The translations under genes were made by a program, and so were the position numbers. Shown here in pieces: positions 21,422 to 56,324 of a stretch of DNA of 64,000 bases; the first letter of the stretch is position 1, and each line of letters begins with the position of its first letter. The notes under the pieces are model-generated. The model saw only the letters and a program-made list of their open reading frames with translations. It ran no database searches and was not told the DNA's origin. The stretch is from Clostridiales bacterium (GTDB taxonomy: Bacteria; Bacillota; Clostridia; Monoglobales; JAIRYP01): NCBI GenBank assembly GCA_031267755.1, contig JAIRYP010000011.1, positions 128,761 through 192,760 of the forward strand, written 5' to 3'.

Positions 21422-21447
21422 CAAAATTAAAATTAATTTAATGTGAG

Positions 21448-23343: not shown

Positions 23344-23375
23344 AGTATTAAATTTTTTAAAGTTGGTGTTAAATT

Positions 23376-33242: not shown

Positions 33243-35444
33243 CTATTTTTGATTAGAATGATCGAAAGTCTTTTCTTTCTTTTCAACCTGTTTTTCAAAA
33301 TCTTCAGACGATTGAAAAGTTGAATGTTCTGTAACTTTTTCTCGATCTTGCACCGCAGTGGAACTTTCACTTCTTGAATGGAAAGGTGGTAAATGTTTTA
33401 GGGGATAAAAATCCTCATTTCCTTTTAATTTTATTGGTTTCTCAAAAACAGCATCTGGATATCTACAGTGATTATAGTATGGAGCAAGAAAAAATATATG
33501 CAATAAACCGCTTCTAAAAAATAAATAAATAGCTTGAAAAAAAATATATATTTTGCTTCTTTTAAGCCCATCGCGTTCAAGTATTTTAATCATAGCCTTA
33601 ACTTTTATTTTCTTTTTTTCCTTTGAATCTAACACTTCATGTAAGGACCGCTTGCCCTCTTCACTTAATTTAATTTTTTCAGCTTTGAGTAACGCTAACA
33701 AAAAAAGCAACTGTTCCTCATAAGCGTTTAAACGTCGAGTCGTCATATATTTTTTTTCCGCAAAATCATTCAAACGTTTATTAAAAGAATCTTTTTCTTC
33801 TTCTACTTTGCCTTCTACTTCTTTACCTTCTTCGTTTTCTTCTTCTACTTCTTTTTCTTCTTCTACTTCTTCTACTTCTTTACCTTCTTCGTTTTCTTCT
33901 TCTACTTCTTTTTCTTCTTCTACTTCTTCTACTTCTTTACCTTCTTCGTTTTCTTCTTCTACTTCTTTTTCTTCTTCTACTTCTTTTTCCTCTTTTTCTT
34001 CTTTTTCTTTTTGAAGAATCCTCTCATAAAATTTCTCAACATTTTGATCGAAATTTGAATAATCCAATAGATGTATATTATAACCATATTCATCCATATA
34101 AAAAGATACTTTTTCTTTAAAATCTGATAATTGTTTCAATAATCCAGGTTCTCGATCTCCACTTTTTTTAAACTTTTCAACTATTTTATAAACTTTTGGG
34201 CTTCCAAAAAACGCAAAATTTAAAATAATTCTTTCTCTAAAATTTAATTTTTTTTCTATAGTTAAATCAACAGAAAATCCAAAAGGAAGCCACATATTTC
34301 CATTTTGCCACAAACCTACAATACAAGCCTCTTTAAGCGCTTGTTTAAAATAAATATGTTTAAATTCTCTTTTAGAACAAATATTAAACTTCCTAATTAA
34401 CATCTGAACAAATTCCGAAGGCTTTTTATTTTTTTCACAAAAATCAGTTAAAGTGAGTGCTGGAACTAAAACAAGAGCACCTAAATCTTGAGAAGAACAA
34501 GAATCACTTTCAAGAGGTTCAATACAATCAAGTAAACGTAAAACTCGATTATCAAAGACCTCATTAAACTCTATTGTTTCAGTACAATTTGGAATTGCAA
34601 AATAACCTAAAAAAAAGAAAAAGAAAATTTTACTTGCATCATTAAAAGAACTAACTCGACCTAAAACATTTTGTGAAAAACCTAATTTCTCTAAATCATA
34701 AAAATTTTCATTACCAACTCCGCCACAAATAATTGATTGATGCAAAATATATAAAATATCATTTTTCAATTCTGGAGTTAAACTAGACATTGGCGTAATT
34801 TGTTTTTTTAAATCTTCAAAACTTTTTGACAAATTAATAGGAAAACTCATACAAGTCTGCAAAGATTGTTTATGATTTGAAATGCGACAATGCCGAATTC
34901 TAAAAATTTTAGTTATTGCAGCATAATTATATTTGTCAATATAATCAAAACTACTAAAATACTCAATAAAACGTTCAAAATATTTTAAACCTAAACCTTC
35001 GCGCTCATCAAAACAACGAGATTCAAAAATAATATTTTCCACATTGCTCAATAATTCTTCTTTTTGACTTGGATTCAAAGAATTATAATTCAGTCCACTA
35101 GTTAAAATAATTAAGGTACAAACAAATTTAATAAACCTATCTGGTTCTGTTGTAAATAAAATAACAGATTTACAAAATCTTTCTTCTTTAAATAATTCTA
35201 AAATAATGATTTTTAAAACTTCACTATTCTCGACAAATGGATATCCATAATTTTGTGAAATAAAACTAGAAATTTCTTCTAAAATATTCCAAAATTTTTC
35301 TATGTTAGAATCAGAAATATAATATTCTTTTGGTGGTTTATTAAAATCAACACCCACAAATGAATCATTTACTATTTCTCTTACTTCATTAATCTCATCT
35401 TGAAATTTACTACCTGATTCGCTAATAAGTTCAATTAAATTCAT
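33243..35444 (-). CDS. hypothetical protein with acidic tandem repeat; divergent fourth member of family C
   Basis: 733-aa ORF. Its C-terminal block EEQLLFLLALLKAEKIKLSEEGKRSLHEVL parallels LTFSLVALAFLLAYPSDKIILNREYKSLDAF (member 3) and IEIIGLSIFIAYLPDEKISRRDSKNIHDLL (member 1). An acidic linker sits at the same relative position. Confidence 0.65.
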   Translation of the reverse strand: MNLIELISESGSKFQDEINEVREIVNDSFVGVDFNKPPKEYYISDSNIEKFWNILEEISSFISQNYGYPFVENSEVLKIIILELFKEERFCKSVILFTTEPDRFIKFVCTLIILTSGLNYNSLNPSQKEELLSNVENIIFESRCFDEREGLGLKYFERFIEYFSSFDYIDKYNYAAITKIFRIRHCRISNHKQSLQTCMSFPINLSKSFEDLKKQITPMSSLTPELKNDILYILHQSIICGGVGNENFYDLEKLGFSQNVLGRVSSFNDASKIFFFFFLGYFAIPNCTETIEFNEVFDNRVLRLLDCIEPLESDSCSSQDLGALVLVPALTLTDFCEKNKKPSEFVQMLIRKFNICSKREFKHIYFKQALKEACIVGLWQNGNMWLPFGFSVDLTIEKKLNFRERIILNFAFFGSPKVYKIVEKFKKSGDREPGLLKQLSDFKEKVSFYMDEYGYNIHLLDYSNFDQNVEKFYERILQKEKEEKEEKEVEEEKEVEEENEEGKEVEEVEEEKEVEEENEEGKEVEEVEEEKEVEEENEEGKEVEGKVEEEKDSFNKRLNDFAEKKYMTTRRLNAYEEQLLFLLALLKAEKIKLSEEGKRSLHEVLDSKEKKKIKVKAMIKILERDGLKRSKIYIFFQAIYLFFRSGLLHIFFLAPYYNHCRYPDAVFEKPIKLKGNEDFYPLKHLPPFHSRSESSTAVQDREKVTEHSTFQSSEDFEKQVEKKEKTFDHSNQK
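33811..33981 (-). repeat. 3 x 57-bp in-frame tandem repeat encoding (EEEKEVEEENEEGKEVEEV)3
   Basis: By direct comparison, units 33868-33924 and 33925-33981 are identical. Unit 33811-33867 differs only at its first base. The period of 57 bp equals 19 codons. Confidence 0.9.
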
Positions 35445-35683: not shown

Positions 35684-36229
35684 ATGAAAGCCACGGGAAT
35701 AGTGCGAAAAATTGACAATTTAGGTAGAGTTGTAATACCCAAAGAAATTAGATCAACAATGAAAATACGCGAAGGTGATCCACTCGAAATATATACAGAT
35801 AGAAATAATGAGGTAATATTTAAAAAATATTCATTGATCGGTGAGCTTGGAATCTTTGCCGAGCAATATACCGAAAGTTTAGCAAAAGTTTCGCAATTTC
35901 CAGTTTGCATAAGCGACAGAGATGTTTTAATTGCTTGCAATGGAATTTCAAACAAAAATCTGATAATAGGCAAAAGAATTTCCAAAGAAATTGAAGATTA
36001 TATAGAAACAAAAACTTTATCTATAATAAAAAAAGAAGAAAAAGTTCCGCTTTTACTTGAAGACAATCAAAAATATAAAATTGCGGCAATTGCTTCAATA
36101 ATTTTCGAAAATGAACCAATTGGATCAGTACTACTTCTTGAAAACTCAAAAAACAAAAAAGATGTTGAAGAATCAGATATGAAACTTATTGAGGTTGCTT
36201 CAATTTTTCTATCAAAGGTCGCAAATTAA
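35684..36229 (+). CDS. spoVT: stage V sporulation protein T (AbrB-type DNA-binding domain plus GAF-like domain)
   Basis: MKATGIVRKIDNLGRVVIPKEIRSTMKIREGDPLEIY is the SpoVT/AbrB swapped-hairpin domain. The length of about 181 aa fits SpoVT rather than AbrB. The ATG at 35684 is better spaced from AAGGGG than the track's ATG at 35675. Confidence 0.85.
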   Translation: MKATGIVRKIDNLGRVVIPKEIRSTMKIREGDPLEIYTDRNNEVIFKKYSLIGELGIFAEQYTESLAKVSQFPVCISDRDVLIACNGISNKNLIIGKRISKEIEDYIETKTLSIIKKEEKVPLLLEDNQKYKIAAIASIIFENEPIGSVLLLENSKNKKDVEESDMKLIEVASIFLSKVAN

Positions 36230-36307
36230 GTAAAATAATAATAACCGTAAATTAAAAAATTTTAAAAACGTTTGAAAAATTTTATAGAACGTAATCAAAA
36301 ATAAATA

Positions 36308-36324
36308 GTCGCCTGAGAGGCGAC
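36308..36324. terminator. bidirectional rho-independent terminator between convergent spoVT and 36358-37617
   Basis: Perfect 7-bp stem GTCGCCT/AGGCGAC with a 3-nt loop (GAG). It is flanked by an A-rich run upstream and a T-rich run downstream (ACATTTATTTAATTTTT). Confidence 0.6.
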
Positions 36325-36357
36325 ACATTTATTTAATTTTTAATTATAGAATCAAAA

Positions 36358-37617
36358 TTATTTCCCCGGAACAGTTGCTTTTTTAGGAGCAGGGGCTTTA
36401 GCTTTAGGAGGCATTGCATTAGGCGGCGTAATCGGGGTAGATTGACGATATAATTCTACTTCGTTTTCTTGTTTTTGAGTTATTGCATCCTTAGCATGAA
36501 TAACTAAATCACTAATTTTTTCTTCGTCAATGTGTGGCAAGTTTGCATCCACATGCTTTTTTGCAAGAAATTCAAGTGCGCTGTGATCGCCATTTTTTGC
36601 TTTTTCCATATTAATTTGTATTTCTTTCAATTTTGCTTCTAATTCTTTTAATCTTTTCGAACAAGTATCTGCGCAAATGTCAAGCTCGTCTTTAATTATT
36701 TTGGTAAGATTACGAAAATCTTCTATTGATTTTTCATACATTTTTTTAACGAGTTCTTTCCTAAAATCTTTCGAAGAATCAGGAAAAGCGTTTTTAACTA
36801 ACCGTCCTAAATTCTTCTCCAATTCGTGAGACGTTTCAATCAATTGATTATAAAACTTTTCTCCTAGCTTACCTAAAGATTTAAAATATCTCAAAACCTT
36901 TATAATTTCTGTTGAAACAACACTTAACTCTTTACCTCCTCTTTTTAATTTTTCAACATATTCTATTGCCTTATCAATAGCTTCATCAAATGACACCGTT
37001 TTTTCTGACGACATTTTATCTGATGCTAATTCAACTGGCAATGATTCGTTCGCTGAGAATGAGTCAAGCGTTAGTTTCTCTGGCGAAGAAATTTTGGAGG
37101 ATGAATCGAGCATTGGTTTTTCTGATGAAAAATCATTCGATAAATCGGGCGAAATTGTAAACGATGAAGTTTCTAAAACTGGTAAAGTTCCTGAGCCTTC
37201 AGGGTCTTTATAATCTTCTGGCTCTGAAATTGTTAAATTGGGATTCGACGCCTCAGTGGTTTCTGTTTGACTAGTTTTAACTACTCCTAATGCATCATTC
37301 TCTGGTAATTTTTCTAAATTTTCTTCTTTAATTTTTGTAGCATCAATTTCTTTTACTTTTTCTCTCTCTTGATTTATTTTCTTTTTTATTTTTTCAAATT
37401 TACTGTAATTTTCGAAAAATAAAAAATCTTTTTCAAAAGAATGCAAAATCAATAAAATAATCAAAATAGGTGTAAAAAACAAACAAATAATAAATTGAAA
37501 TATCATTTTGTAAAAAATTTTATTTTGCTGTTTGATTAATTCTTTTATGTTTTCGGTATCATCAGAATGTTTTTCAATCTTTTTAAAATCAATCATGTTT
37601 TTCACCACCTGAAACAA
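36358..37617 (-). CDS. hypothetical single-pass membrane coiled-coil protein, KKATV[PH]GK-tail family (type A, copy 1)
   Basis: 419 aa. The N-terminus KKIEKHSDDTENIKELIKQQNKIFYKMIFQFIICLFFTPILIILLIL is near-collinear with 40233-41417. A Ser/Glu/Pro-rich linker is followed by a helical C-domain ending PPNAMPPKAKAPAPKKATVPGK. Confidence 0.75.
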   Translation of the reverse strand: MFQVVKNMIDFKKIEKHSDDTENIKELIKQQNKIFYKMIFQFIICLFFTPILIILLILHSFEKDFLFFENYSKFEKIKKKINQEREKVKEIDATKIKEENLEKLPENDALGVVKTSQTETTEASNPNLTISEPEDYKDPEGSGTLPVLETSSFTISPDLSNDFSSEKPMLDSSSKISSPEKLTLDSFSANESLPVELASDKMSSEKTVSFDEAIDKAIEYVEKLKRGGKELSVVSTEIIKVLRYFKSLGKLGEKFYNQLIETSHELEKNLGRLVKNAFPDSSKDFRKELVKKMYEKSIEDFRNLTKIIKDELDICADTCSKRLKELEAKLKEIQINMEKAKNGDHSALEFLAKKHVDANLPHIDEEKISDLVIHAKDAITQKQENEVELYRQSTPITPPNAMPPKAKAPAPKKATVPGK

Positions 37618-37711
37618 TTTTAAAAAATATAACGATTATTTTAAACAATTTTTTTAAAATAATCAATGATATTTTTTTAATAAATTAAGTTTATTTGTGA
37701 AGTTAAAATTT

Positions 37712-38911
37712 TTATTTTCCGTGTACAGTTGCTTTTTTGGGCGCAGGGACTTCAGCTTTAGGAGGCATTGCATTAGGCGGCAACATTGCAGCCGCTTGCT
37801 TAGGTGGGATTGGGTGATATATTGCTTCTTGAGTATCTATTTTCTTTTTTAAATCGGCTTCTACTTGACTGACAAATTTATTAGCGCTATCTACAAAATG
37901 CTGTTTTAGCGAAGTTAAGGTCGCGTCTGAAATTTCTGGGCAAGGAATCGGCTTCGCTTGAGCAATAAAAGAAGTTGCTTCTTCATCGCCTCCAACAGCT
38001 TCAACGAGTTTTTTGCCTATAAGTTCATCCTGAGCCTGCTTTTCTTCTAAATATTTTGTTAATGGCACTTGTGCTTTTTTATATGTATCTGTCATCGAAT
38101 CAAAAATTGAAGTAAGACCTCCAACTAAATTACTATTATTTTCTACAATCAATCCAGTCTTAACTGTCTCAGGCAAAGGAGCCTCTGTTATCAATTTTGA
38201 AGTTTTAACGCCGCCTTCTTGTAATACATGTTTTACATCATCTAAAGTTCCTCCATACCAAACATCTAATTTTCCCGAACTTGATACTCCCTTACTTCCT
38301 TCGTTAGAACTTCCCTTTTGAAAAATTCCAAAAAAATGTTTTGCATTGTTTGCATTTGTCTGTATGCGCTGTTGCTCATCAACTTCACGCTTTCGTTCAA
38401 CAGCCTTACATTTCTCTTTAATACCTTCTAACAACCCTTTATATCTCTGCCACCCTTTTCTAAATCTTTCTAATTCTGCAATTTCTCCATCCAATCTTGA
38501 TCTTTCATCTTCAGCATTACTTTTCTGTACAGCACGCGAAATACCTCCACCGATAGCACCAGCCAACAAACCAATGCCTGCACCAACTGCTGTTCCTACT
38601 AAAGGAATTGGAAAACTTGTACCAATTGCAGCACCAACACCTGCTCCTGTGGCTGCCCCAGCACCTGCACCAGCAACACCTCCTGCTACAGGTCTTGTTA
38701 CATTTCCCTTGATTATCCCGTCTTGGTCTTCTACCAAAACCCTAAAATCTCTTATACACTCTTCGATTTTCGTAATTAAAGCACTAGCACTCTCTAAATG
38801 TCTTTCCAACTCATCTTCTGTAAAACCTCGCGCAGTGTATTCACCAACAATTTCACCTGATCCCACTTCTCTTTTCATACGCTCCATTTCGTCTCGCGCA
38901 GTTGCTGCCAT
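37712..38911 (-). CDS. hypothetical glycine-zipper membrane protein, KKATV[PH]GK-tail family (type B, intact copy)
   Basis: 399 aa with the Gly/Ala zipper segment AGGVAGAGAGAATGAGVGAAIGTSFPIPLVGTAVGAGIGLLAGAIGGGI, followed by coiled coil. The C-terminus is PPNAMPPKAEVPAPKKATVHGK. Its DNA is much GC-richer than its neighbours: my counts are 60/130 for 38781-38910 and 62/120 for 38581-38700, against 25/120 for 39181-39300. Confidence 0.8.
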   Translation of the reverse strand: MAATARDEMERMKREVGSGEIVGEYTARGFTEDELERHLESASALITKIEECIRDFRVLVEDQDGIIKGNVTRPVAGGVAGAGAGAATGAGVGAAIGTSFPIPLVGTAVGAGIGLLAGAIGGGISRAVQKSNAEDERSRLDGEIAELERFRKGWQRYKGLLEGIKEKCKAVERKREVDEQQRIQTNANNAKHFFGIFQKGSSNEGSKGVSSSGKLDVWYGGTLDDVKHVLQEGGVKTSKLITEAPLPETVKTGLIVENNSNLVGGLTSIFDSMTDTYKKAQVPLTKYLEEKQAQDELIGKKLVEAVGGDEEATSFIAQAKPIPCPEISDATLTSLKQHFVDSANKFVSQVEADLKKKIDTQEAIYHPIPPKQAAAMLPPNAMPPKAEVPAPKKATVHGK

Positions 38912-39124
38912 TTTTAACTCCTTCTGAGATTATGATTGATTTTAAATTGTTCTAACAAAGATGCTTATACTGCAAAATAAAAAATTTTAAATAAAATTTT
39001 TGAAAATATATTAATAAACTTTTAAAACTATAATTAAAATACTTTGTAAAAAATTTATAATTGTTTTTCATTAATTAATTGTGTTATCATTATGTAATTC
39101 ATATTTTTAATAAAGGACGAAATA

Positions 39125-40165
39125 ATGAACACTGCATCAGAAGAATATAAAGAGATTTTTAATGCTTTTTTTGAAGAAGTAAATTTACTTGAAAAAGATA
39201 AATTCAGAAAAGAAATCATGGATATGATGCTTGATTGGACAGAATTTTTTAAAAAGAAAAATGAATTAGATGAGAATGATTATATTTCAGAAAAAAAAAT
39301 GAACAAAATCATAAAAAAAGTATATAGATCAAAAGTAATTCAAGAATATAATAAAGAAACAGGTTCTAATTTAGAAGAACTTGTTGTTGTTTGTCCATCA
39401 ACTCATCATTTTAATTTTCTTCACTTCCATCAAATTAAAGATATTTTTAATTATTTACAAAGGCACAAGATTAAATTTATATTAAAAAACATACGTTTAT
39501 TAATTCAACTTAAAAATATTGAAGAAAATAAATATCAAAATGATGAAATTGTCAAAAAAATTTTAGACAAAACTAGAAAATCAATACATGATTTTCGATG
39601 CATAGAAATAGAATACAAAGATGAATTTAAAAAAAAAGATTCTCCAGTGCTTTTTATTGTTAGACATGCTTGCATAATAAATTTAGCATGCAAATTACTG
39701 AAATCGATGGAAAGAAAAATAAAATTTTCAACACATGATTTGAATAAACTTAAATTTTTTATGAAAATAGAAAATGAAAGTGGATTTGGCTTTTATAACC
39801 AATATATTTTTGAAGAATTAAAAAACACATATAATAAAAAAGGTAAAAAAGCACTCCATAATCAATTAAAAAATTTAGAAGATAATTTTTCATCATTAAA
39901 CACAAAAATTTTTCCAAATTTAATCGGTTATTTCTACACTATTTTTGTAGAAATTAAAGATCATTTCTTTCCTAAAAAACCTGAAATAATCTTAGAAGAG
40001 TTAAAAAAAGAAAAAATGGCAGGATATAGAAGTTTTGAAAATTATATAGAATTAATAAAAGAAGTAAAAGAACTAAACGGCAAAATTGATCCTACATCTT
40101 TTAGTGATCCTGCACTCAATAATATAAACACTAGTAAAGTTGAAGAATATATGTTTATAAAATAA
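39125..40165 (+). CDS. hypothetical protein (Lys-rich, soluble)
   Basis: 346-aa ORF on the opposite strand between the two copies of the duplicated module, with an AAGGA RBS upstream. It has no TM segment, no signal peptide and no recognisable motif. Confidence 0.6.
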   Translation: MNTASEEYKEIFNAFFEEVNLLEKDKFRKEIMDMMLDWTEFFKKKNELDENDYISEKKMNKIIKKVYRSKVIQEYNKETGSNLEELVVVCPSTHHFNFLHFHQIKDIFNYLQRHKIKFILKNIRLLIQLKNIEENKYQNDEIVKKILDKTRKSIHDFRCIEIEYKDEFKKKDSPVLFIVRHACIINLACKLLKSMERKIKFSTHDLNKLKFFMKIENESGFGFYNQYIFEELKNTYNKKGKKALHNQLKNLEDNFSSLNTKIFPNLIGYFYTIFVEIKDHFFPKKPEIILEELKKEKMAGYRSFENYIELIKEVKELNGKIDPTSFSDPALNNINTSKVEEYMFIK

Positions 40166-40232
40166 CTATAACTAATCTTTGACCTTTTTTTAGCTTTAAA
40201 TCCTCTCAGTAAATGGAGCAATTATATTAAAA

Positions 40233-41417
40233 TTATTTTCCGTGTACAGTTGCTTTTTTAACTGGAGTTTCAGAAGACATTGATTCAAAAAAAGGCATAG
40301 CTGGTTTTGCAGTTGAAAACCTTTTACGGTATTCCTCCACCCGGGCTTTTTGATTTTGAATTATTGAGTCTATCAAATTGTTAATTAAGCTATATAATTT
40401 TTCCTCATCGATTTCCGAAAATAAAAAAGGCGCTTCCACATGTTCTTCGGCAAGAAATGCTAACGCTTTTTCATCGCCCTCTTTTGCTTTTTGCATATTG
40501 ACTAAAATTATTTTTGATTCATTTTCTAATCTCGCCATTCTCTCTGCACACATACCCTCAAGAGCTCCAATATCATGACCAATTGTTATATAAAAATTAC
40601 GCACTTGTATTTCCGTTTCAATAAAAATTTCTTCAAAAATCTCTTTTATGGAATCTTTTGAAATATTAGGAAAAGTCACATTAAGTAATACTTTTAAATT
40701 TGCTTTTAAATGATGCAGTTTACCAAAAGTTTGGTAAATAAAATTATAGTACAGTTTAGATATAGATTTAGAAAGCTTACGATTTTTTTCAATTTCCTCT
40801 AAAATACCATCGCTTTTTTTGATTTTTGCTTCTGTTTTTTCTTTTCTAATACTCTCTGCAACTTTGTCGAATACTCCATCTAATAACGCTAATTTTTCCT
40901 GTTCGAACTGTTCCGACAAAACGAACGAAATATCTGGGGTTCTTAAATCTTTTGATTCTTGTGAATTTAAAACTGGTGATTCAAGGTTTGATGATTCAGA
41001 ATTATCAACACTTTCAGGCTGCTCTGTATTTAAAGATGGTGATTCAAGGTTTGATGATTCAGAACTTTTTATTTTTTTAATTTCTGTTGAATTTAATGGT
41101 TCACTATCTTTCAATTTTTCTATTCTTTGTCTTTCAAATTTCTCAAAATCTATTTCCTTTATTTTTTTTCTCTCTAAATTTATTTGTTCCTTTATTTCTT
41201 CTAATTCTTTGCACGTTTTAAAAAACAAATAATCTTTTTCAAAAAAATGCAATAATAAAAAAATTATGAAAACAGGAATAAAAAATAAACAAATTATAAA
41301 TTGAAATATCATTTTATAAAACGGTTTGTTTTGTTGCCTAATTAAATCTTTTATAAATTCTGTATCATTCGATTGTTCTTCGATTCTTTTAAAATTAACC
41401 ATAACTTCTATCGCCAA
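40233..41417 (-). CDS. hypothetical single-pass membrane coiled-coil protein, KKATV[PH]GK-tail family (type A, copy 2)
   Basis: 394 aa. The N-terminus FKRIEEQSNDTEFIKDLIRQQNKPFYKMIFQFIICLFFIPVFIIFLLL is paralogous to 36358-37617. The C-domain block MQKAKEGDEKALAFLAEEHVEA ... ends VKKATVHGK. Confidence 0.75.
   Translation of the reverse strand: MAIEVMVNFKRIEEQSNDTEFIKDLIRQQNKPFYKMIFQFIICLFFIPVFIIFLLLHFFEKDYLFFKTCKELEEIKEQINLERKKIKEIDFEKFERQRIEKLKDSEPLNSTEIKKIKSSESSNLESPSLNTEQPESVDNSESSNLESPVLNSQESKDLRTPDISFVLSEQFEQEKLALLDGVFDKVAESIRKEKTEAKIKKSDGILEEIEKNRKLSKSISKLYYNFIYQTFGKLHHLKANLKVLLNVTFPNISKDSIKEIFEEIFIETEIQVRNFYITIGHDIGALEGMCAERMARLENESKIILVNMQKAKEGDEKALAFLAEEHVEAPFLFSEIDEEKLYSLINNLIDSIIQNQKARVEEYRKRFSTAKPAMPFFESMSSETPVKKATVHGK
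40975..41064 (-). repeat. 63-bp-period coding repeat (SESSNLESP[SV]LN x2) in the linker of 40233-41417
   Basis: The exact 27-nt string GGTGATTCAAGGTTTGATGATTCAGAA occurs at 40975-41001 and 41038-41064, with similar flanks. Confidence 0.8.
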
Positions 41418-41491
41418 CTTTTAAAATATTTTTTTAAAATAAACAATAATGTTTTTTCGACAAATTAAGTTTATTTATAAAATTAAAACCA

Positions 41492-42659
41492 CTATTTTCC
41501 AGGTACAGTTGCTTTTTTAGAAACTGGGGTTTTAAGAGGTGTTACAGTAAGTGGTGATGTGTCTGCTTGCGTAAACGGAGTTGGTTGATATTGCAACCTG
41601 AAAGCTTCCACGGCAGCCTTTTGTCTCTGAATTATAATATCCTTAACGTGACTAATCAAATCGTTAATTTTTGCCTCATCAATTTGCGGTAAATTTGCTT
41701 TCAAATGTTTTTTTAGCAAAAATGCAGAAGCAGATTCATCACCTTCACTAGCTTTAACCATATTAAGTTGTATTTCTTTTAATTCAATTTCCAGCTCTTT
41801 CATTCTTTCCAAACGAGTACCAATACAAATTTCAAATTCCTCTTTAATTTTTATGTAACAATCGCGAATATCTTCTTTTGACTTTTTAAATACATTTTTA
41901 ACAAGTTTTTTTCTAAAAACCTTTGGAAAATCTGGAAAAGTATTTTTAACTAATTCTTTCAAACTGCTTTTCAATTCATCTTTCATATCATCAATCTGAT
42001 CAGAAAGTTTATCTCTAAATGTTTGCAATTTATCTATGTGTTCTCTATTTTCGTTATGTTCTTCAATGGCCTCTTGTTTCTTCGCCCCGCCATTTTTCAA
42101 ATCAGTTTCTAATTGTTTAACTTTTAATTCTAAAACCACACAGTCTTCTAATTCTTTTTGCTTCGCTGGTGATTTGTCAGGTACTTTACGATGATCCATT
42201 TCTGTTTTTATCTTTGTAATAAAAACCTTCCAGAATTGATTTCTCGAACATATAATGCGGAATTATCTCAGCTTCAAGTCTTGTTTTTTCTTCCGTTAAA
42301 CTTTTGTTTTCAAGTTCACTCGCCGCTTTTCCAAACACATAACCAAAAATAGTGCCTATAATAGGAATAATAGAACCAACTATCGCATAAGCAAGTGGCG
42401 ACGAATTTGAATCTTCCAACATTTTTGTTATCTAGTTATTTCTTTGTTCACAATGAACTAACCCTCTTTCACGAAATTCGATACGATTTTCAGAATCAAC
42501 CCAATATTCCTTCAACTGTTGATTGTTTAAATCAACGATTTCTTCTGGCACAATAAACGATTCTCCCGCACGTTCTTTTCTATTTTCCTTTAGAACATGA
42601 AATTCTTCGCTTAATTTAAAAATTTCACTAGAAGTTTTTGTCGCAGACATCGATACCAT
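41492..42659 (-). pseudogene. disrupted type-B KKATV[PH]GK-tail gene (three collinear ORFs: 42432-42659, 42186-42422, 41492-42199)
   Basis: The ORFs together span 1168 nt, against 1200 nt for intact 37712-38911, with the same order of parts. The N-domain RKERAGESFIVPEE parallels MKREVGSGEIVGEY. The TM segment is AYAIVGSIIPIIGTIFGYVFG. Coiled coil and the tail KKATVPGK follow. ORF1 and ORF2 are in the same frame, separated by a TAG at 42432-42434. ORF2 and ORF3 differ by one frame at the A5 run at 42221-42225. Removing one base there gives LEGFITKIKTEMDHRKV, matching LEGIKEKCKAVERKREV in the intact copy. Confidence 0.55.
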
Positions 42660-42888
42660 ACCTCCAAATAAAAAAAGTATTGTTATATTGCTGAAATACT
42701 ATGTATTTATATATAAAAATTTTAAAATAATTTCAACAAAATTTCAAAAAACAAAAATGTTTTTTATTGAAAAAACTTCTAAAATGACTAACTTGAAAAA
42801 TATTTGAAAAAATACAATATTTTTATGTATGCGACTTGAAAAATTTTTAAAGATAATTTTTTAAAAATAAAATTTAGCAAAATATTGA

Positions 42889-43983
42889 TTACACGTTAAA
42901 CAGAAAATGAATAATATCTCCATCATGAACAACATATTCCTTTCCTTCACTTCTGATAAGTCCTTTTGACTTTGCATTTGAAAGACTTCCGCATTCTAAA
43001 AAATCATCAAATCCAATTACTTCGGCACGAATAAAACCACGTTCAAAATCTGAGTGTATTTTTCCAGCTGCTGCCGGTGCTTTTGTATTATTCGTAATTG
43101 TCCATGCTCTTACCTCTGGTTTTCCAGCAGTGAAATAACTTATTAATTCAAGTAAATCATAACTTTTTTTAATAAAACTATTAAGTCCGGTATCGCTTGC
43201 TCCTATATCCTCTAAAAATATTTTCTTTTCTTCATCAGACAAACTAGAAAGTTCCTCCTCGATTTTAGCGGAAATTACAATCATCTCAGACTCATTTTTT
43301 TCACTATATTCTTGAACTTTTTTTAAAAAATCATTTTTACCTGGATTTGTATAATCACCTTCAGTAGAATTTGCTGCATAAATCACTGGTTTTAAAGTGA
43401 TTAAATTAACATTTGACACAATCTCAATTTCTTTTTGGGAAAGATTCAAATTTCTAGCCATTTTACCGCTTTCGAGAAATACCTTTATCTTATTTAAGGT
43501 ATCAAGTTCAAATTTCCTATTTTCTTCGTTAATTTTAAAATTTTTATCAAGTTTTGAAATTCGTTTTTCAACAATATCAATATCTGAAAAAATAAGTTCC
43601 AAATTAACAATTTCAATGTCACGAATTGGATCAACAGAATTTTCGACATGAAAAATATTTTCATCTCTAAAACACCTTACAACGTGAACTATAGCATCAA
43701 CTTCGCGAATATTTGATAAAAATTTATTACCAAGTCCTTCGCCAACGCTTGCTCCTTTCACAAGACCCGCTATATCAACAAAATTTGCAACCGCTGGCGT
43801 AATTTTTTCTGGGTTATATATTTTTGATAATTCTTCAAGACGGATATCTGGCACATTTACAACACCAATATTGGGCTCTATTGTGCAAAAAGGATAATTG
43901 GCAGACTGCACAGACGACTTAGTTATCGCATTAAAAAGAGTACTCTTTCCAACGTTTGGAAGTCCAATAATGCCAAGTTCCAT
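42889..43983 (-). CDS. ychF: ribosome-binding ATPase YchF
   Basis: 364 aa with the G1 motif GIIGLPNVGKSTLFNA and a C-terminal TGS domain (KGLIRSEGKEYVVHDGDIIHFLFNV). Confidence 0.95.
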   Translation of the reverse strand: MELGIIGLPNVGKSTLFNAITKSSVQSANYPFCTIEPNIGVVNVPDIRLEELSKIYNPEKITPAVANFVDIAGLVKGASVGEGLGNKFLSNIREVDAIVHVVRCFRDENIFHVENSVDPIRDIEIVNLELIFSDIDIVEKRISKLDKNFKINEENRKFELDTLNKIKVFLESGKMARNLNLSQKEIEIVSNVNLITLKPVIYAANSTEGDYTNPGKNDFLKKVQEYSEKNESEMIVISAKIEEELSSLSDEEKKIFLEDIGASDTGLNSFIKKSYDLLELISYFTAGKPEVRAWTITNNTKAPAAAGKIHSDFERGFIRAEVIGFDDFLECGSLSNAKSKGLIRSEGKEYVVHDGDIIHFLFNV

Positions 43984-44126: not shown

Positions 44127-44780
44127 TCATTTTTGTAAATCTCTTTTAATATTATTAATATCATCATTTATTTCTTTATATTGCCTTAAATTCTTCTCAG
44201 CGTGATCTTCAAGTTCTCGTATCTGAGTACGTTCAAAAACTTCTTCATCAAAAATGAATCTAGCTCTACGATTTCTCCTATCTTCTTCTTCACTCAAAAT
44301 ACGTTGTTGTTCTACACGTCGAGCTTCTTGTAAAAATGAAAAAAGTTCAATACTACGTACTTTAAACTCTGCTTCTGTCACTAATTCCTTTACTCTATTC
44401 ACTAAAAATTTTTTACCATACAAAATATTACTTAAAATTAGTTTGTCACTCGCTGCAATTTCTTCTTTAAGAGAATCGGAAAAAGGTTTTTTACTTTCAT
44501 ACCTTATTTTCTCTTCTTCTAATTGTCTTTCAAGTTCTTCTATTATAGGTCTTGAAGCAAAATCTACCAACATACTAAAACTTTGTAATATTCCGTAACA
44601 ATTTCGTGCTTCAACAATATCAATATCATTTTCAAAATTCGCAAACGCAACAACATTTCCATCAGGCCCAATTCCTTGTCTATCTCCAGAAAACAACCTC
44701 AAATGAGCTGCTTCCGCATTTTCAACTGTTTGTTCATCCATATCTAAAATTCTATAACATTGAAAAAATATACCATTCAT
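44127..44780 (-). CDS. hypothetical protein, family A ([FY]F.CYRILDMD N-terminus), copy 1
   Basis: 217 aa. MNGIFFQCYRILDMDEQTVENAEAAHLRLFSG aligns with MVFFDCYRILDMDSEKVRAASEAYERLCQRV from 44858-45511. The two also share EEEDRRNRRARFIFDEE versus EEEDRINRRSRLSYDEE. It has no TM segment or signal peptide and a coiled-coil C-half. Confidence 0.7.
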   Translation of the reverse strand: MNGIFFQCYRILDMDEQTVENAEAAHLRLFSGDRQGIGPDGNVVAFANFENDIDIVEARNCYGILQSFSMLVDFASRPIIEELERQLEEEKIRYESKKPFSDSLKEEIAASDKLILSNILYGKKFLVNRVKELVTEAEFKVRSIELFSFLQEARRVEQQRILSEEEDRRNRRARFIFDEEVFERTQIRELEDHAEKNLRQYKEINDDINNIKRDLQK

Positions 44781-44857
44781 CGTTTAACCAATCCCTTCTT
44801 ATTACAAAAAATATTTTATAAATTTAAAATAATTATAATATTTATTTTTACTCAATT

Positions 44858-45511
44858 TTACTTATTTTTAAAATTATTAATATCTTGACTTAATTTTTTT
44901 TGAAGACGTAAAATTCTTTCTGAAGGAGTTTCAAACATTTTTATTTCTTTTTCTACAAGAAACTCTTCGTCATAACTAAGTCTACTTCTACGATTTATTC
45001 TATCTTCTTCTTCTCTCAAAATACTCTCTTGTTCTAAACGTTGAGCTTCTCTAGTATCATGAATAAGTTGAATAAAAGTTAATCTATTTTCCGCCTCTCG
45101 TAATTTTTCTTCTACGTCTCTAACAATAGATTTAACATTACACAAAAGATTAAGTGAAAGATAGTAATCACTTTCTGCACGCCTTTTTAAAATGGGATCT
45201 GAAAAAGTTTTACCTTCAAAACTTTGTTTTGCTAATTCCAATTCTTGTTCACGTTGTAATATTAAAGGAGCTGAGGCCATTACTACATCTGCATAAAAAT
45301 TCCGCAATGATCCAAAAATACCCCTAGCAGTATTAAGATCAATTTGATTAAAAGCTTCAGGAAAAAACTCTGGAAAAACTTCAAACTGTGTAGGATTTTC
45401 AACAGTTCCAATCGCATGAACGCGTTGACACAATCTCTCATAAGCTTCACTTGCTGCTCTGACTTTTTCTGAATCCATATCTAAAATTCTATAACAATCG
45501 AAAAAAACCAT
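44858..45511 (-). CDS. hypothetical protein, family A, copy 2
   Basis: 217 aa, collinear with 44127-44780 over its full length, with a GAGGAG RBS upstream. Confidence 0.7.
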   Translation of the reverse strand: MVFFDCYRILDMDSEKVRAASEAYERLCQRVHAIGTVENPTQFEVFPEFFPEAFNQIDLNTARGIFGSLRNFYADVVMASAPLILQREQELELAKQSFEGKTFSDPILKRRAESDYYLSLNLLCNVKSIVRDVEEKLREAENRLTFIQLIHDTREAQRLEQESILREEEDRINRRSRLSYDEEFLVEKEIKMFETPSERILRLQKKLSQDINNFKNK

Positions 45512-45558
45512 ATTTAATCTCTCCTCTTTTTTTAATATAAAAAATATTCTACAAACTT

Positions 45559-45588
45559 ATTATAACACAATAACTTGAAAAAAATCAA
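45559..45588 (-). promoter_or_regulatory. sigma-A-type promoter candidate with extended -10 upstream of 44858-45511
   Basis: Read on the minus strand: TTGATT (45583-45588), an 18-nt spacer, then TGTTATAAT with TATAAT at 45559-45564. That is about 45 nt upstream of the start codon. The same leader sequence recurs upstream of the gene remnant at about 46585-46655. Confidence 0.35.
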
Positions 45589-45667
45589 ACATTTTAAATT
45601 TTTACGCCAAACAATGAAATCTCCACACATCATATATTTCTCATAATTATTATTGTTTACTCAATCT

Positions 45668-46249
45668 TCATTTGCCTAACTGTAATTTAAGATTTTCAAT
45701 ATCTTTATTTAAACTTGTTAATAAATGTGAAGCTCTTTCGTTGAGTCCTTCAAATTCTTTTATATTGCCTACAAAAAAATGCTCATCATAAACATCAACA
45801 ATAATTCTTTCATTTTCCGTATTTTCCCGAACTGTTACAAAAAAATTTACATCTTGATGAAATTCATCATTAATTTGACTAACCATCAATTCAAATTGCG
45901 CTAATTGCAAAACTTGCTTAATGATATCAATACACAAATCAATATTAAGTAAATTAAGTTCTATAGATATTCTATCTTCAGAATCTATATCTGTTCCCTC
46001 TAAATCAGTCTGAAGCTGTTCAGACATAGCTATTGATGTTGAAAATACTAAATTTCCGAAATCTTCTAATGTTTGGCAACAACGTTCCGCAGTAGCCACA
46101 TCAACTCCAACTATAGCATGATCTACAAAAAAACTTCCATCATTGTCTATTGAAACTCTACCACTACATAATGTTCGAAAAGCTTCATCAGCTCTTTCAA
46201 TCGTCTCCAAATCTAAATTCAACTTATCATGAAAATAAATAAAATTCAC
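45668..46249 (-). CDS. hypothetical protein, family A, divergent copy 3
   Basis: 193 aa. MNFIYFHDKLNLDLETIERADEAFRTLCSG aligns with the N-termini of the other two copies. The C-terminal NKDIENLKLQLGK parallels DINNIKRDLQK. It lacks the RRNRR block. Confidence 0.65.
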   Translation of the reverse strand: MNFIYFHDKLNLDLETIERADEAFRTLCSGRVSIDNDGSFFVDHAIVGVDVATAERCCQTLEDFGNLVFSTSIAMSEQLQTDLEGTDIDSEDRISIELNLLNIDLCIDIIKQVLQLAQFELMVSQINDEFHQDVNFFVTVRENTENERIIVDVYDEHFFVGNIKEFEGLNERASHLLTSLNKDIENLKLQLGK

Positions 46250-51425: not shown

Positions 51426-52184
51426 TTAATCATCAAAATTAACAAAACTTAAAAATTTTTTCGTTCTTTCTTCTTTTGGATTTTGAAATATACTATCTGG
51501 CGAACCTTCTTCAATTATGCGTCCACCATCCATAAATAATATACGATTTGCAACATCTCGTGCAAATCTCATCTCATGAGTTACTATAATAATAGTCATA
51601 CTAGAAAGAGCAAGTTCTTTTATAACCTCCAAAACTTCTACAACCATTTCAGGATCAAGAGCACTTGTCGGTTCATCAAAAAGCATAACTCCAGGATTCA
51701 TCGCAAGCGCCCTAGCAATTGCAACACGCTGCTGCTGACCGCCCGAAAGCTGTTTAGGATAGCTATCTGCTTTATCAGCAAGCCCAACTCTTTTCAAAAG
51801 CTCATAAGCTTTACTTTCAGCCTCTTCTTTAGACATAATTTTTAAATCTACTGGCGCAAGCATTATATTTTTTTTCACTGTAATATGAGGAAACAAATTG
51901 AATTGTTGGAAAACCATTCCAATATTTCTTCGCAATTTATCAATATTTTTGTCTTTTTTAAGCTCATTTTTATCAATAAAAACTTCACCACTATCTGGCT
52001 GTTCAAGTAAATTTAAACATCTTAAAAAAGTAGATTTTCCAGATCCAGACGGACCTATAATACCAACTACTTCTCCCTCAGTAACATCAAGACTAATTCC
52101 CTTTAAAATTTTCAAATCCCCAAAACTTTTATATAAATTTTTAACACTGACTTTTATTAACACGATTATAATTCCTTTCCGCAA
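51426..52184 (-). CDS. polar amino acid ABC transporter ATP-binding protein (GlnQ-like)
   Basis: Walker [10 protein letters not shown], signature [15 protein letters not shown] and Walker [12 protein letters not shown]. The track start is a TTG that overlaps the permease gene. A GTG at 52163 ([15 protein letters not shown]) is a likelier start. Confidence 0.9.
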
Positions 52185-52836
52185 CCATCGAAATCTGAGT
52201 TAAAATAGTTACAATGATTAAATAAAAAATCGCAACAACCGTCCAAGTAGAAAACGATTCCATCGTCCTACCAATATAAATTTTTGCCTCATAAATAATT
52301 TCTCCAAGACTTATCACTGAAACAATTGATGTATCTTTTAAACTTATTATAAACTGATTTACAAGTGAAGGAATTGAAATTCTTATTGCTTGAGGAAGAA
52401 CAACTCGTATCAAAGAGCGCCACTTTGAAAACCCAAGACTACGAGCCGCCTCCGTTTGACCAACATCGACCGCCAAAACTCCTCCACGAAAAATTTCCGA
52501 AATGTATGCGCCCGCATTAAGCCCAAGTGTAATAATTGAAGCAGTAAAAACTGATATCCTAAAGTTTATTCCAAAATGTTGAATAAGCTGTGGAATAGCA
52601 AAATAAATATAAAATACCTGAACTATAAGTGGAGTTCCACGTATTATCCAAACATAAACATCAGACAAAAAAGAAAAAATTTTAATACACGATAAATGTG
52701 CTAAGCATGATAATAAACCCAAAAATATTGCAATAATAAGAGCTATAAAAGTTGTTTGCATCGTAATACCAAAACCCTTCAATAAAAAAGGAAAAGCTTC
52801 ATTCAAAACTTTAATTATATTCATAAACTTCTCCAA
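52141..52836 (-). CDS. polar amino acid ABC transporter permease
   Basis: 231 aa, multi-TM, with the EAA loop [24 protein letters not shown]. The start may be the internal Met at 52824. Confidence 0.88.
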
Positions 52837-53608: not shown

Positions 53609-53659
53609 CTCAAAAACACATAAAATAATATTTTAGATATCAAAATTTCAAAAACAATA

Positions 53660-54484: not shown

Positions 54485-54678
54485 AAAATTACTCCTTTAT
54501 TATTCTTCAAAATATTTAATAAAATCAAAAATAAATCTTCTTCATTATTTAAAATTTTTATTTTACGTAAATAATTTGTTCTCTTTCATAAAAAATCTTT
54601 TTAAAATTATGTATCCAAAAAATATAAACCATATCTTCATCATGTCAATAACTTTAAAATTATAATCTTTAAAATTTT

Positions 54679-55452: not shown

Positions 55453-55529
55453 TTCTTAACTTCTTTTATATTAAACATATGCCATAGATAATAAAAACAT
55501 TTTTAAATTATTTTCAAAAAATTCTAAAA

Positions 55530-56213: not shown

Positions 56214-56324
56214 ATTCTTTCTTGCCTCCCAAAAAATTATACTAGAAAAACAAAAAATATTTATAATTTAAATAATTAATATTTCCTCTGTAAACAAAAA
56301 TTATATGATTTTAATTTCAAATAA

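Follow-up and report, generated by a model that had tools for sequence, protein, structure and literature searches.

A GC-rich gene with host-type codons for a lineage-restricted, probably membrane-anchored glycine-zipper protein in an AT-rich Clostridia genome

A gene with 40% GC in a genome with 28% GC looks foreign, and the locus described here raises the question of whether it is so and of what kind of protein the gene encodes. The gene, here termed type B, lies in a stretch of 64,000 nucleotides (the window) of contig JAIRYP010000011.1 from a metagenome-assembled genome (MAG) of a Clostridiales bacterium. The identical NCBI entry is titled 'MAG: hypothetical protein LBJ09_02015 [Clostridiales bacterium]'. 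The original prediction, made from the sequence of the window, described an intact gene, and this was borne out by an uninterrupted reading frame with an ATG start and a ribosome-binding site. The features of the locus are listed in Table 1. An ORF at 38346-38927 was rejected as a genuine gene. It lies entirely within B on the opposite strand and is therefore read as a stop-free antisense frame of the GC-rich codons of B.

Table 1. Coordinates of the type-B gene, its parts and neighbouring features in the window
Feature	Position	Strand	Remarks
Bidirectional terminator-like hairpin	36308..36324	.	3' of A, between A and convergent spoVT
Type-A partner gene	36358..37617	-	NCBI start 37596, 412 aa
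B-to-A intergenic region	37618..37711	-	Promoter-like TTGATT-17-TAAAAT (promoter scan)
Type-B gene (P0001)	37712..38911	-	399 aa; 100% match to NCBI MDR1391951.1
Pro-rich tail of B	37715..37816	-	Low confidence; basic terminus KKATVHGK
Long helix (aa 121-242), then bundle (248-306, 310-318, 329-365)	37817..38551	-	Shared C-domain of the family
Basic juxta-zipper motif SRAVQKSNAEDERSRL (aa 125-140)	38492..38539	-	VQKSNAEDE identical in P0007
Zipper lobe 2 (aa 106-124)	38540..38596	-	Gly 106, 110, 114, 118, 122; more hydrophobic lobe
Hinge SFPIPLV (aa 99-105)	38597..38617	-	Uncharged, two prolines, separates the lobes
Zipper lobe 1 (aa 75-98)	38618..38689	-	Gly 77, 81, 85, 89, 93, 97; near-pure Gly/Ala/Val
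N-terminal charged domain (aa 1-74)	38690..38911	-	Predicted helix 32-68, AlphaFold2 pLDDT about 80-86
Ribosome-binding site AAGGAG of B	38918..38923	-	6 nt 5' of ATG; read from sequence
Second type-A copy A' (P0003)	40233..41417	-	NCBI 389 aa; 37% identity to A
Broken second type-B copy B'	41492..42659	-	In-frame TAG 42432-42434, then frameshift near 42186-42199
B' C-domain piece	41492..42199	-	235 aa
B' piece with hydrophobic segment and coil	42186..42422	-	78 aa
B' N-domain piece	42432..42659	-	75 aa

Base composition and codon usage of the type-B gene

Gene B is the strong compositional outlier that it had been taken for, with 40.3% GC against 28.1% for the window and the highest GC content among the 46 ORFs found there with a length of 150 aa or more (mean 29.6%, z=4.1). 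The G+C counts given in the original prediction were reproduced exactly (62/120 at 38581-38700, 60/130 at 38781-38910 and 25/120 at 39181-39300). The gene used for comparison, at 39125-40165, has the lowest GC content of any ORF in the window (21.9%), and the contrast with B was thereby exaggerated.

The GC excess of B is confined to the first and second codon positions (GC1 0.555 and GC2 0.428; z=3.3 and 3.45, respectively). A GC3 comparison, which the original prediction had itself proposed as a means of refutation, was made over the 46 ORFs of this one 64-kb window and revealed no anomaly: GC3 is 0.228 in B against 0.202±0.038 in the 45 other ORFs (z=0.68), eight of which have an equal or higher value. 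The prediction also held that amino-acid content cannot explain all of the bias. Expected GC values, computed from the protein sequence and the window's own codon usage, contradict this, being 0.401 against an observed 0.404 for the whole gene (z=0.56) and 0.438 against 0.452 for the N-domain segment (z=0.64), where the Arg/Ala/Gly/Glu content accounts for the GC. In the zipper segment the synonymous sites are even more AT-biased than expected (0.521 observed versus 0.581; z=-2.7), with a GC3 of 5% and 28 of the 30 Gly/Ala codons ending in A or T.

Along its whole length, B has many GARP residues and few FYMINK residues. Gly and Ala together make up 21.6% of the protein, and GARP residues constitute 30%, compared to ~15% in other proteins, and still 25% when the zipper is left out. 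Outside the zipper, a GC of 0.376 is predicted, whereas housekeeping proteins give about 0.29. B owes its high GC to the protein that it encodes, and the codons are the AT-ending ones of the host. The GC signal is thus uninformative on recent transfer or on expression level. Given the host-like GC3 and a GC content matching the amino-acid expectation, the two explanations first proposed, recent horizontal acquisition and strong codon selection on a highly expressed gene, both fail. The synonymous composition of B lies within the range of the 45 other window ORFs, and the databases offered no donor lineage, all homologs found being from the same MAG. Based on the codon-position analysis, the apparent foreignness is purely a matter of protein composition, and raw GC contrasts are unfit for calling gene transfer in genomes of this kind.

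A family of paired genes restricted to one genome

Type-B and type-A genes adjoin and the pair is duplicated in the locus, in agreement with the two-type gene module that had been proposed. The proteins belong to a family whose members have a helical C-domain (about 190 aa) and, after it, a Pro-rich tail whose terminus is basic, the types differing in their anchor, which is a classical N-terminal transmembrane helix in type A and an internal bilobed glycine zipper in type B. Six copies were found, four in the locus (A, B, A' and the broken B') and two on other contigs of the same MAG; P0005 and P0007 bear LBJ09 locus tags of this MAG, the tags being LBJ09_00365 and LBJ09_00905 and the protein entries MDR1391636.1 and MDR1391736.1. 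All four copies in the locus end in KKATV[HP]GK.

In A, an N-tail with seven Lys and a transmembrane helix (Kyte-Doolittle 2.87; Hessa dG -2.7) precede an acidic Ser/Glu/Pro linker, which leads to the shared C-domain and then to the tail KKATVPGK. Between A and A', synonymous differences amount to about 0.6, and dN/dS is 0.18 for the N-terminus and transmembrane helix, 0.61 for the linker and 0.46 for the C-domain. The C-domain of B' is 46% identical to A. The middle piece of B' has one hydrophobic Gly-containing segment, AIVGSIIPIIGTIFGYVFG, which is the counterpart of lobe 2 in B and plainly hydrophobic (Kyte-Doolittle 1.9), and the fragment also carries SELENKSLTEEKTRL, related to the basic juxta-zipper motif of B. 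At the nucleotide level, the B-to-A intergenic region is conserved between the two module copies, with 83% identity to 41419-41518 across 100 nt, and A and B show 89% identity in their last 70 nt despite saturated synonymous sites in the family. A search of Rfam over 36000-43000 gave no match even at E<=1.

An exhaustive profile search of 1.84 billion representative proteins recovered family copies in the same MAG and in no other genome. Word-indexed searches, for which B, A and a profile of B and P0007 lacking the zipper served as queries, returned the query proteins alone, and scans of genome and metagenome contig collections for the family motifs gave no match. Among 80 YchF loci (best YchF identity 62%), there was neither synteny with the locus nor any relative of A or B. 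B is the most divergent member of the family and is not recovered from its paralogs by BLASTP at 1e-4. In Pfam, NCBIfam, PHROG and PADLOC nothing scored above threshold for B. The sub-threshold scores were 13.7 bits for Gly-zipper_YMGG (cut-off 28.9) and 15.7 for DUF1269 (cut-off 26.9) in Pfam, and 14.6 for YiaD_Gzip_OmpA (cut-off 175) in NCBIfam. These weak family matches are restricted to glycine-zipper membrane segments (DUF1269, Gly-zipper_YMGG, YiaD and the zipper regions of phage tape-measure proteins). The family profile found nothing meaningful among PDB sequences, and Foldseek comparison with the PDB and viral models gave generic long-helix matches alone, all with E>0.1 and some to surface proteins.

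These searches also bear on an ancient acquisition from a GC-richer donor, after which synonymous sites would have ameliorated fully while the GARP-rich composition lagged behind. Even outside the zipper, the amino-acid composition of B is what a genome with roughly 40-50% GC would be expected to yield, and the divergence of B within the family fits such a history. However, with no homolog outside the MAG among the representative proteins or contig collections there is no candidate donor, the family has expanded in its own genome, and its type-B copy P0007 is only mildly enriched in GARP residues. In addition, B shares its tail and flanking intergenic DNA with the neighbouring native copies. 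No integrase or transposase adjoins the locus and no mobility signature (integrase, transposase or phage genes) was detected among the locus proteins with Pfam, NCBIfam, PHROG and PADLOC, while the sole tRNA of the window, at 14442-14517, does not flank the locus. We regard an ancient transfer as highly improbable.

The glycine zipper and its relation to the membrane

The 49-aa Gly/Ala string quoted in the original prediction corresponds to residues 76-124 of B. Its glycine zipper is real; the claim that it is uninterrupted did not stand, since two in-register GxxxG runs (G77-G97 and G106-G122) are split by the Gly/Ala-free stretch TSFPIPLV, of which T98 is counted with lobe 1. B has nine i,i+4 Gly pairs against 4.9 expected from composition-matched shuffles (P=0.011) and a run of six (P=0.016). 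The same spacing is enriched in P0007, which was tested independently (P=0.029). Although the two paralogs are only 27% identical overall, they agree in having two lobes, a Pro hinge and VQKSNAEDE after the zipper, and the hinge motif P-I-x-x-G-T is conserved in P0007. Judged from these sequence patterns, the zipper of B appears to be under constraint.

The description of a zipper flanked by a charged N-domain and a coiled coil agrees with the AlphaFold2 model, where a helix spans residues 32-68 and one long helix residues 121-242, and pLDDT is about 90 across residues 170-365. No signal peptide or lipobox was found in B, the N-terminus MAATARDEMERMKREVGSGE being charged and having no hydrophobic h-region. 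Charged residues are absent from the 50-residue zipper stretch, where Thr and Ser are the only polar residues. The two flanks of the zipper hold three and four Lys/Arg and the hinge none.

B is a lineage-restricted and probably membrane-anchored protein, and the zipper is the likely anchor. A helical hairpin is our tentative assignment for its topology, which we would put at somewhat under an even chance. In such an arrangement, the two (GxxxG)n lobes and the uncharged Pro hinge would form a hairpin dipping into the cytoplasmic membrane, and the small-residue faces of the lobes would allow tight helix-helix packing and homo- or hetero-oligomerization. Both the N-terminal helix and the long helix after the zipper would remain on the cytoplasmic side, where the latter and the bundle may serve as a membrane-tethered scaffold and the conserved tail may bind a partner common to type A. 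By the positive-inside rule, the positive flanks of the zipper agree with an N-in, C-in hairpin, and the absence of a signal peptide fits this topology. Summed Hessa dG values are positive for both lobes (+5 to +6 kcal/mol for lobe 1, Kyte-Doolittle 1.1-1.25; +2.7 kcal/mol for lobe 2, Kyte-Doolittle 1.91), making spontaneous Sec-type insertion marginal, and the one hydrophobic segment in B' fits a single span better than a hairpin. The complete reading, with B as a native gene of an AT-rich, poorly sampled Clostridia lineage, a member of a genome-restricted multigene family, anchored by a zipper hairpin and equipped with a scaffold C-domain, seems to us evenly balanced between right and wrong.

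In two AlphaFold2 runs with different alignments, residues 71-123 had no secondary structure (pLDDT 23-34), the zipper still being unstructured in the second run with a 7-sequence alignment; with alignments of 5-7 sequences this is weak evidence for disorder. As the zipper is given no confident structure, we infer membrane insertion of B from the features above. The same region could instead lie outside the membrane, the outcome that the original prediction had named as a refutation, with low-complexity sequence of a flexible, disordered or self-associating kind serving as linker between soluble helical parts of a cytoplasmic or peripheral protein. Besides the low pLDDT, such a linker would agree with the nearly pure Gly/Ala composition of lobe 1 and its unfavourable hydrophobicity and insertion energy, with a weak 12-nt tandem periodicity in the lobe 1 DNA, typical of expandable low-complexity sequence, and with the failure of all Pfam glycine-zipper models to reach threshold for B. 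It accords poorly with an i+4 Gly register exceeding that of shuffles in two such divergent paralogs, with the conserved layout of hinge and lobes and with 50 residues so nearly devoid of polar side chains. Moreover, lobe 2 and its B' counterpart are plainly hydrophobic, and the sister type-A proteins are membrane proteins. A soluble linker is accordingly considered unlikely, though not negligible.

For the C-domains, a location outside the cell was also considered. Type A would then be held by a type-II signal anchor and its acidic Ser/Glu/Pro linker would traverse the wall, lobe 2 would be the single membrane span of B, and the bundles would be variable surface modules subject to paralog turnover and gene conversion, as in the surface-protein families of host-associated bacteria. 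The seven Lys in the N-tail of A are hard to translocate and thus favour an N-in, C-out orientation for this protein, and its acidic, low-complexity linker evolves fast compared to the constrained anchor. The single hydrophobic segment in B', the pseudogene, the homogenised ends and the genome-restricted expansion of the family are in line with surface display, and the weak helical-bundle fold matches include surface proteins. On the other hand, positive charges in B, P0007 and B' cluster after the zipper (4-5 Lys/Arg) and no charged residue precedes lobe 2, which for a single span predicts C-in. The C-domains also have recurrent cysteines. Exported Firmicute proteins usually avoid cysteines, which is weak evidence. 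B has no signal peptide, and no wall-anchoring motif (LPXTG or SLH) was detected with Pfam. Surface display is in our view an improbable reading, on a level with the soluble linker. The orientation of type A is ambiguous; if it is N-in/C-out, the membrane would separate the C-domain of A from that of B, unless B is single-span.

Comparison with known glycine-zipper and bilobed proteins

The concept of the glycine-zipper membrane segment reportedly goes back to Kim et al. in 2005. Like B, the segments of this type (Gly-zipper_YMGG PF13441, DUF1269 PF06897 and SlyB/YfgH/OsmB/YiaD) have (G/A/S)xxxGxxxG runs of small hydrophobic residues, and the '2TM' zipper domain resembles B in having two lobes around a short turn. 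The zippers of SlyB and YfgH act in oligomerization and membrane stabilization, not in killing. SlyB, YfgH, OsmB and YiaD belong to the Gram-negative outer membrane, whereas B comes from a Clostridia-class lineage. Unlike the zipper lipoproteins, B has no lipoprotein signal or lipobox and is a protein of 399 aa whose zipper is flanked by a large helical domain on either side.

Phage tape-measure proteins (PHROG 167, 794 and 934) share with B a hydrophobic Gly-zipper segment followed by long coiled-coil helices, and they are the best PHROG matches of B (E=1.2e-6, 27.6 bits, residues 66-326), the match being local, low-scoring and composition-driven. A tape-measure protein or prophage remnant was rejected, as the neighbouring genes have no PHROG structural matches and B has 399 aa, whereas tape-measure proteins are encoded in tail-gene modules and match the tail in length, usually with >600 aa. 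The viral structure library gave no match to B at E<0.1.

A further reading, in line with the membrane-perturbing or channel role suggested in the original prediction, is that B and A form a pore-forming or membrane-depolarizing module, in which the zipper would oligomerize into an ion-conducting or lytic pore as in TelE, EsxX, Tse4, CdzC/D and VacA, with A as partner or immunity protein and the duplicated, decayed modules as an array of polymorphic toxin cassettes. In-register extended GxxxG runs are needed for the activity of TelE and are also found in CdzC/D, Tse4 and VacA (PMC10434224; PMC5380434). B has such runs, and like the T7SSb LXG effectors TelE/EsxX, CdzC/CdzD and the T6SS effector Tse4 it adjoins a membrane-protein gene, B always being followed by A. 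TelE and EsxX occur in Firmicutes, and variants of the glycine-zipper toxins are polymorphic and lineage-restricted, as is the family described here, with its duplicated module, one decayed copy and homogenised ends. However, no known toxin or channel family matches B. In B and its immediate neighbours no LXG, WXG100, bacteriocin-leader, T7SS, T1SS or T6SS component was detected at E<=0.1, and B has no secretion signal. The zipper lies near the N-terminus (residues 75-124 of 399), after an N-domain of only 74 aa and before a 275-aa helical domain, while known toxins carry theirs in a C-terminal tip or are peptides of 5-10 kDa. The partner A is paralogous to B and has the C-domain and tail in common with it, whereas no such kinship links known immunity proteins to their toxins. 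Glycine zippers are, in addition, common in non-toxic anchors and stabilizers such as SlyB and YfgH. We therefore judge a pore-forming module to be rather unlikely. As to specific toxin classes, identity with an LXG toxin was rejected because the LXG domain (searched with Pfam at E<=0.1), the C-terminal zipper tip and nearby secretion-system genes are all absent. A Cdz or class IIb two-peptide bacteriocin was rejected on size (399 aa versus about 5-10 kDa) and for want of a leader and of an ABC/type-I exporter in adjacent genes.

More speculatively, the A/B modules may constitute an undescribed two-anchor membrane system of an unsampled Clostridia lineage. The B hairpin and the single-span A would co-assemble via their helical domains and identical basic tails, either perturbing membranes, as a new polymorphic toxin/partner cassette whose decayed copies would be spares, or remodelling or tethering the membrane of the cell itself. 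We assign this proposal a low probability. Should the zipper form pores or organize membrane assemblies, a speculative notion with homologs in one MAG, it would show Firmicute glycine zippers in a new context. The family itself is a further orphan family of unusual design, in which a double glycine zipper sits between helical domains, the paralogous partner is held in the membrane by a classical transmembrane helix and both proteins have a basic tail at the C-terminus in common.

The anchored arrangement favoured here also has a parallel in design. Chlamydial Inc proteins have a short N-terminal segment, a bilobed hydrophobic domain of 40-60 residues in which a short loop connects two helices, and a helix-rich or coiled-coil domain, and they form large paralogous families that are specific to a genome and have no homologs elsewhere (PMC3048545). 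The layout of B is alike, with lobes of 24 and 19 residues and a 7-residue Pro hinge free of charge; this is an analogy of design only, with no relationship in sequence or fold. Obligate intracellular Chlamydiae export Inc proteins by type III secretion, whereas B is found in a Clostridia MAG carrying a sporulation regulator gene. The lobes of B are Gly/Ala-rich and far less hydrophobic than those of Inc proteins, their hydrophobicity being marginal (Kyte-Doolittle 1.2 and 1.9).

Composition of gene B

The gene carrying the glycine zipper, B, starts with an ATG, with an AAGGAG ribosome-binding site ending six bases 5' of it, and its product is 100% identical to the NCBI entry 'MAG: hypothetical protein LBJ09_02015 [Clostridiales bacterium]'. 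With a GC content of 40.3%, against 28.1% for the window, B ranks first among the 46 ORFs in the window with 150 aa or more (z=4.1). Recounting gave the same G+C numbers as the original prediction (62/120 in the zipper segment, 60/130 in the N-domain segment, and 25/120 in the adjacent gene). The contrast was, however, inflated by the choice of that adjacent gene (39125-40165), which at 21.9% is the most AT-rich of the window ORFs. It is an orphan plus-strand ORF of 346 aa, located on the opposite strand in the interval that separates the A/B modules, with a GC3 of 0.14 and a GC content below the amino-acid-based expectation (z=-2.5).

The counts had been taken to mean that amino-acid content leaves part of the bias unexplained, and to point to recent horizontal acquisition of B or to codon selection. 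Resolved by codon position, the excess resides in GC1 (0.555, z=3.3) and GC2 (0.428, z=3.45), whereas GC3 (0.228, z=0.68) is typical of the window ORFs and is equalled or exceeded in eight of the 45 others. GC contents predicted from the protein sequence and a codon table built from these 45 ORFs match those observed for the whole gene and for the N-domain, whose GC-richness stems from its many Arg, Ala, Gly, Glu, and Val residues. The zipper segment has a stronger AT bias than expected, with a GC3 of 5% and 28 of its 30 Gly/Ala codons ending in A or T. B thus uses native codons, and its anomaly is fully accounted for by its protein sequence. Recent transfer and codon selection are refuted by its ordinary GC3; similar GC3 in other genes, here found within the window, was the outcome that the original prediction itself had named as speaking against an anomaly. 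The protein composition of B is still unusual, with 30% GARP residues (25% without the zipper) against ~15% in other proteins, and 24% FYMINK residues against ~40%. An ancient transfer followed by amelioration of the synonymous sites has no positive support and is considered very improbable. A 193-aa plus-strand ORF antisense to B within its coding region (38346-38927) is read as a stop-free antisense frame of the GC-rich codons of B and not as a gene.

Features of the A/B locus and GC content of gene B
Feature	Coordinates	Strand	Description	GC observed	GC predicted	z
A	36358-37617	-	type-A family copy
B	37712-38911	-	intact ORF, 399 aa	0.404	0.401	0.56
B, zipper segment	38581-38700	-		0.521	0.581	-2.7
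B, N-domain segment	38781-38910	-		0.452	0.438	0.64
A'	40233-41417	-	type-A family copy
B'	41492-42659	-	second type-B copy, broken into ORFs of 75, 78, and 235 aa

Glycine zipper and predicted architecture

The Gly/Ala string reported earlier corresponds to residues 76-124 of B. The glycine zipper is real and in register, but it is not uninterrupted as had been stated: lobe 1 (Gly at 77, 81, 85, 89, 93, and 97) and lobe 2 (Gly at 106, 110, 114, 118, and 122) are separated by an uncharged hinge, TSFPIPLV, without Gly/Ala. Compared with shuffles of these 52 residues, the zipper is enriched in i,i+4 Gly pairs, with nine where 4.9 are expected (P=0.011), and in having a run of six (P=0.016). P0007, encoded elsewhere in the same MAG and 27% identical to B overall, keeps both lobes and a Pro hinge (V-P-I-F-G-T), has an i+4 Gly enrichment of its own (P=0.029), and shares the identical motif VQKSNAEDE immediately after the zipper; judged by sequence, it is a true type-B protein. 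The Gly register is thus real and conserved, which speaks for the zipper being under constraint and against drifting low-complexity sequence.

AlphaFold2 models built from alignments of five and seven sequences (mean pLDDT 70.5 and 74.6) agree on a helix at residues 32-68 and, with pLDDT ~90, on a long helix at 121-242 followed by helices at 248-306, 310-318, and 329-365. The flanks of the zipper are thus helical, while residues 71-123 are unstructured in both models (pLDDT 23-34). Foldseek searches against PDB and viral models gave generic long-helix matches only, all with E>0.1, and the family profile found no meaningful match among PDB sequences. The C-domain is therefore confidently predicted as a helical bundle carried by a long stalk, but defies classification. 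Pfam and NCBIfam matches to B were all sub-threshold and confined to the zipper (DUF1269, 15.7 bits, cut-off 26.9; Gly-zipper_YMGG, 13.7, cut-off 28.9; YiaD, 14.6, cut-off 175). PHROG gave weak, local matches to Gly-zipper-plus-coil regions of tape-measure proteins (best E=1.2e-6, 27.6 bits) and no significant phage-family match for the neighbouring genes, and PADLOC returned no significant match.

The zipper is probably a membrane-embedded anchor that would mediate tight helix packing and oligomerisation. We prefer a helical-hairpin topology in which the N- and C-termini are both cytoplasmic, because B lacks a signal peptide, the 50-residue stretch is uncharged, the hinge contains two prolines, and the outer flanks, especially the conserved post-zipper motif, carry three and four Lys/Arg. 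Against the hairpin stand positive summed insertion energies (+2.7 for lobe 2, +5 to +6 for lobe 1), the uninformative AlphaFold2 models of the zipper, and the single hydrophobic segment retained in B'. Where type B has the zipper, type A has a clear-cut TM helix at its N-terminus (Kyte-Doolittle 2.9, summed Hessa dG -2.7 kcal/mol) followed by an acidic Ser/Glu/Pro linker. A further point against the hairpin is the ambiguous orientation of type A, with which a C-out topology with surface display of the whole family is possible.

Glycine zippers occur in the killing proteins TelE, EsxX, CdzC/D, Tse4, and VacA (PMC10434224; PMC5380434), as well as in the non-toxic membrane stabilisers SlyB and YfgH (bioRxiv 10.64898/2025.12.22.696046). 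Membership of B in a known toxin family was rejected, as the defining features of each are missing. Unlike the glycine-zipper toxins, B lacks an LXG domain, a leader peptide, and nearby secretion genes, the zipper lies towards the N-terminus and not at the C-terminal tip, and its 'partner' is a paralog and not an unrelated immunity protein; a role as pore or toxin is possible but unsupported. From the SlyB class it differs in lacking a lipoprotein signal. The closest design match, by analogy only and with no relationship claimed, is the layout of the Chlamydiae Inc proteins, in which helical/coiled-coil domains follow a two-lobed hydrophobic domain (40-60 residues) in large genome-specific families (PMC3048545).

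The A/B family and its homologs

The four neighbouring minus-strand genes A, B, A', and B' have a C-terminal region of ~190 aa in common, as well as a Pro-rich tail whose end reads KKATV[HP]GK. B' is disrupted by an in-frame TAG (42432-42434) and a frameshift near 42186-42199, and at least its 78-aa and 235-aa pieces are listed by NCBI as separate proteins; its C-domain resembles that of type A (46% identity) more than that of B. Between A and A', synonymous sites are saturated (differences ~0.6), with dN/dS at 0.18 for the N-terminus with the TM helix, 0.61 for the linker, and 0.46 for the C-domain. On sequence comparison, the B-to-A modules are two old duplicates.

Outside the tail, the A and B proteins are only ~20% identical, whereas the last 70 nt of their genes (36358-36427 and 37712-37781), encoding PPNAMPPKA.APAPKKATV.GK, are 89% identical, and the tail looks homogenised. 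Likewise, the B-to-A intergenic region with adjoining tail codons (37618-37738) shows 83% identity to its B'-to-A' counterpart (41418-41518) over 100 nt. The conservation of both blocks far exceeds that of synonymous sites, a sign of gene conversion, or of constraint at the sequence level, affecting the tail and the beginning of A's transcription unit. The B-to-A intergenic region contains a promoter-like TTGATT-17-TAAAAT and had no Rfam match; it may hold a conserved regulatory element or have undergone gene conversion. Given their common, homogenised tail, A and B may present one and the same short peptide to a partner that they share.

A family profile searched against 1.84 billion representative proteins retrieved seven. 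Five come from the locus (its four proteins and the 78-aa fragment of B'); the others are P0005 (a partial sequence of 218 aa, E=1.9e-19) and P0007 (441 aa, E=4.5e-4). These two bear LBJ09 locus tags and thus belong to other contigs of the same MAG. Word-indexed protein searches, including one with a zipper-deleted profile of B and P0007, revealed no further homologs, and family-motif scans of genome and metagenome contigs gave no matches. YchF, encoded next to the locus (42889-43983, minus strand), has a best identity of 62% among 185,579 species-representative genomes; its nearest relatives are from gut Oscillospiraceae and Clostridia MAGs, whose genomes showed no synteny with the A/B locus. 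This level of identity places the MAG in what appears to be a deep, unsampled Clostridia lineage. The orphan status of B may therefore partly be a sampling effect, and the unsampled lineage probably accounts for the many orphan ORFs. The analysis is of value mainly because it corrects the GC inference and describes an orphan family with two kinds of anchor.

Other features of the window

Lineage-specific ORFs are numerous in the window, B being one of them; at least eight other large ORFs here are without a family match. A minus-strand ORF of 733 aa (33243-35444), also without a family match, has a hydrophobic segment near its C-terminus, a highly acidic tandem repeat, EKEVEEENEEGKEVEEVEE, with a period of ~57 nt at 33773-34048, and a GC content below the amino-acid prediction (z=-3.25). 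Consecutive plus-strand ORFs of 642, 631, and 707 aa (19493-25499) had no Pfam match, nor had the 707-aa ORF, the only one of the three run against NCBIfam, a match there; the first and third are weakly similar (30% over 105 aa). Directly beside ychF, at 44127-46249 (minus strand), are two 217-aa paralogs in tandem (39% identical) and an ORF of 193 aa, all without Pfam or NCBIfam matches. Several paralogous gene pairs are also found at 51426-57029 (minus strand), such as 54679-55452 and 51426-52184 (50% identical), along with the mutually related minus-strand genes 52141-52836, 55530-56213, and 56325-57029. Over the whole window, the GC skew switches sign at precisely the points where the coding strand does, near 5000, 33000, and 59000, and thus tracks the direction of transcription. 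Its magnitude is unequal, ~+0.1 over plus-strand and -0.3 over minus-strand gene blocks, and may also carry a replication-strand signal.
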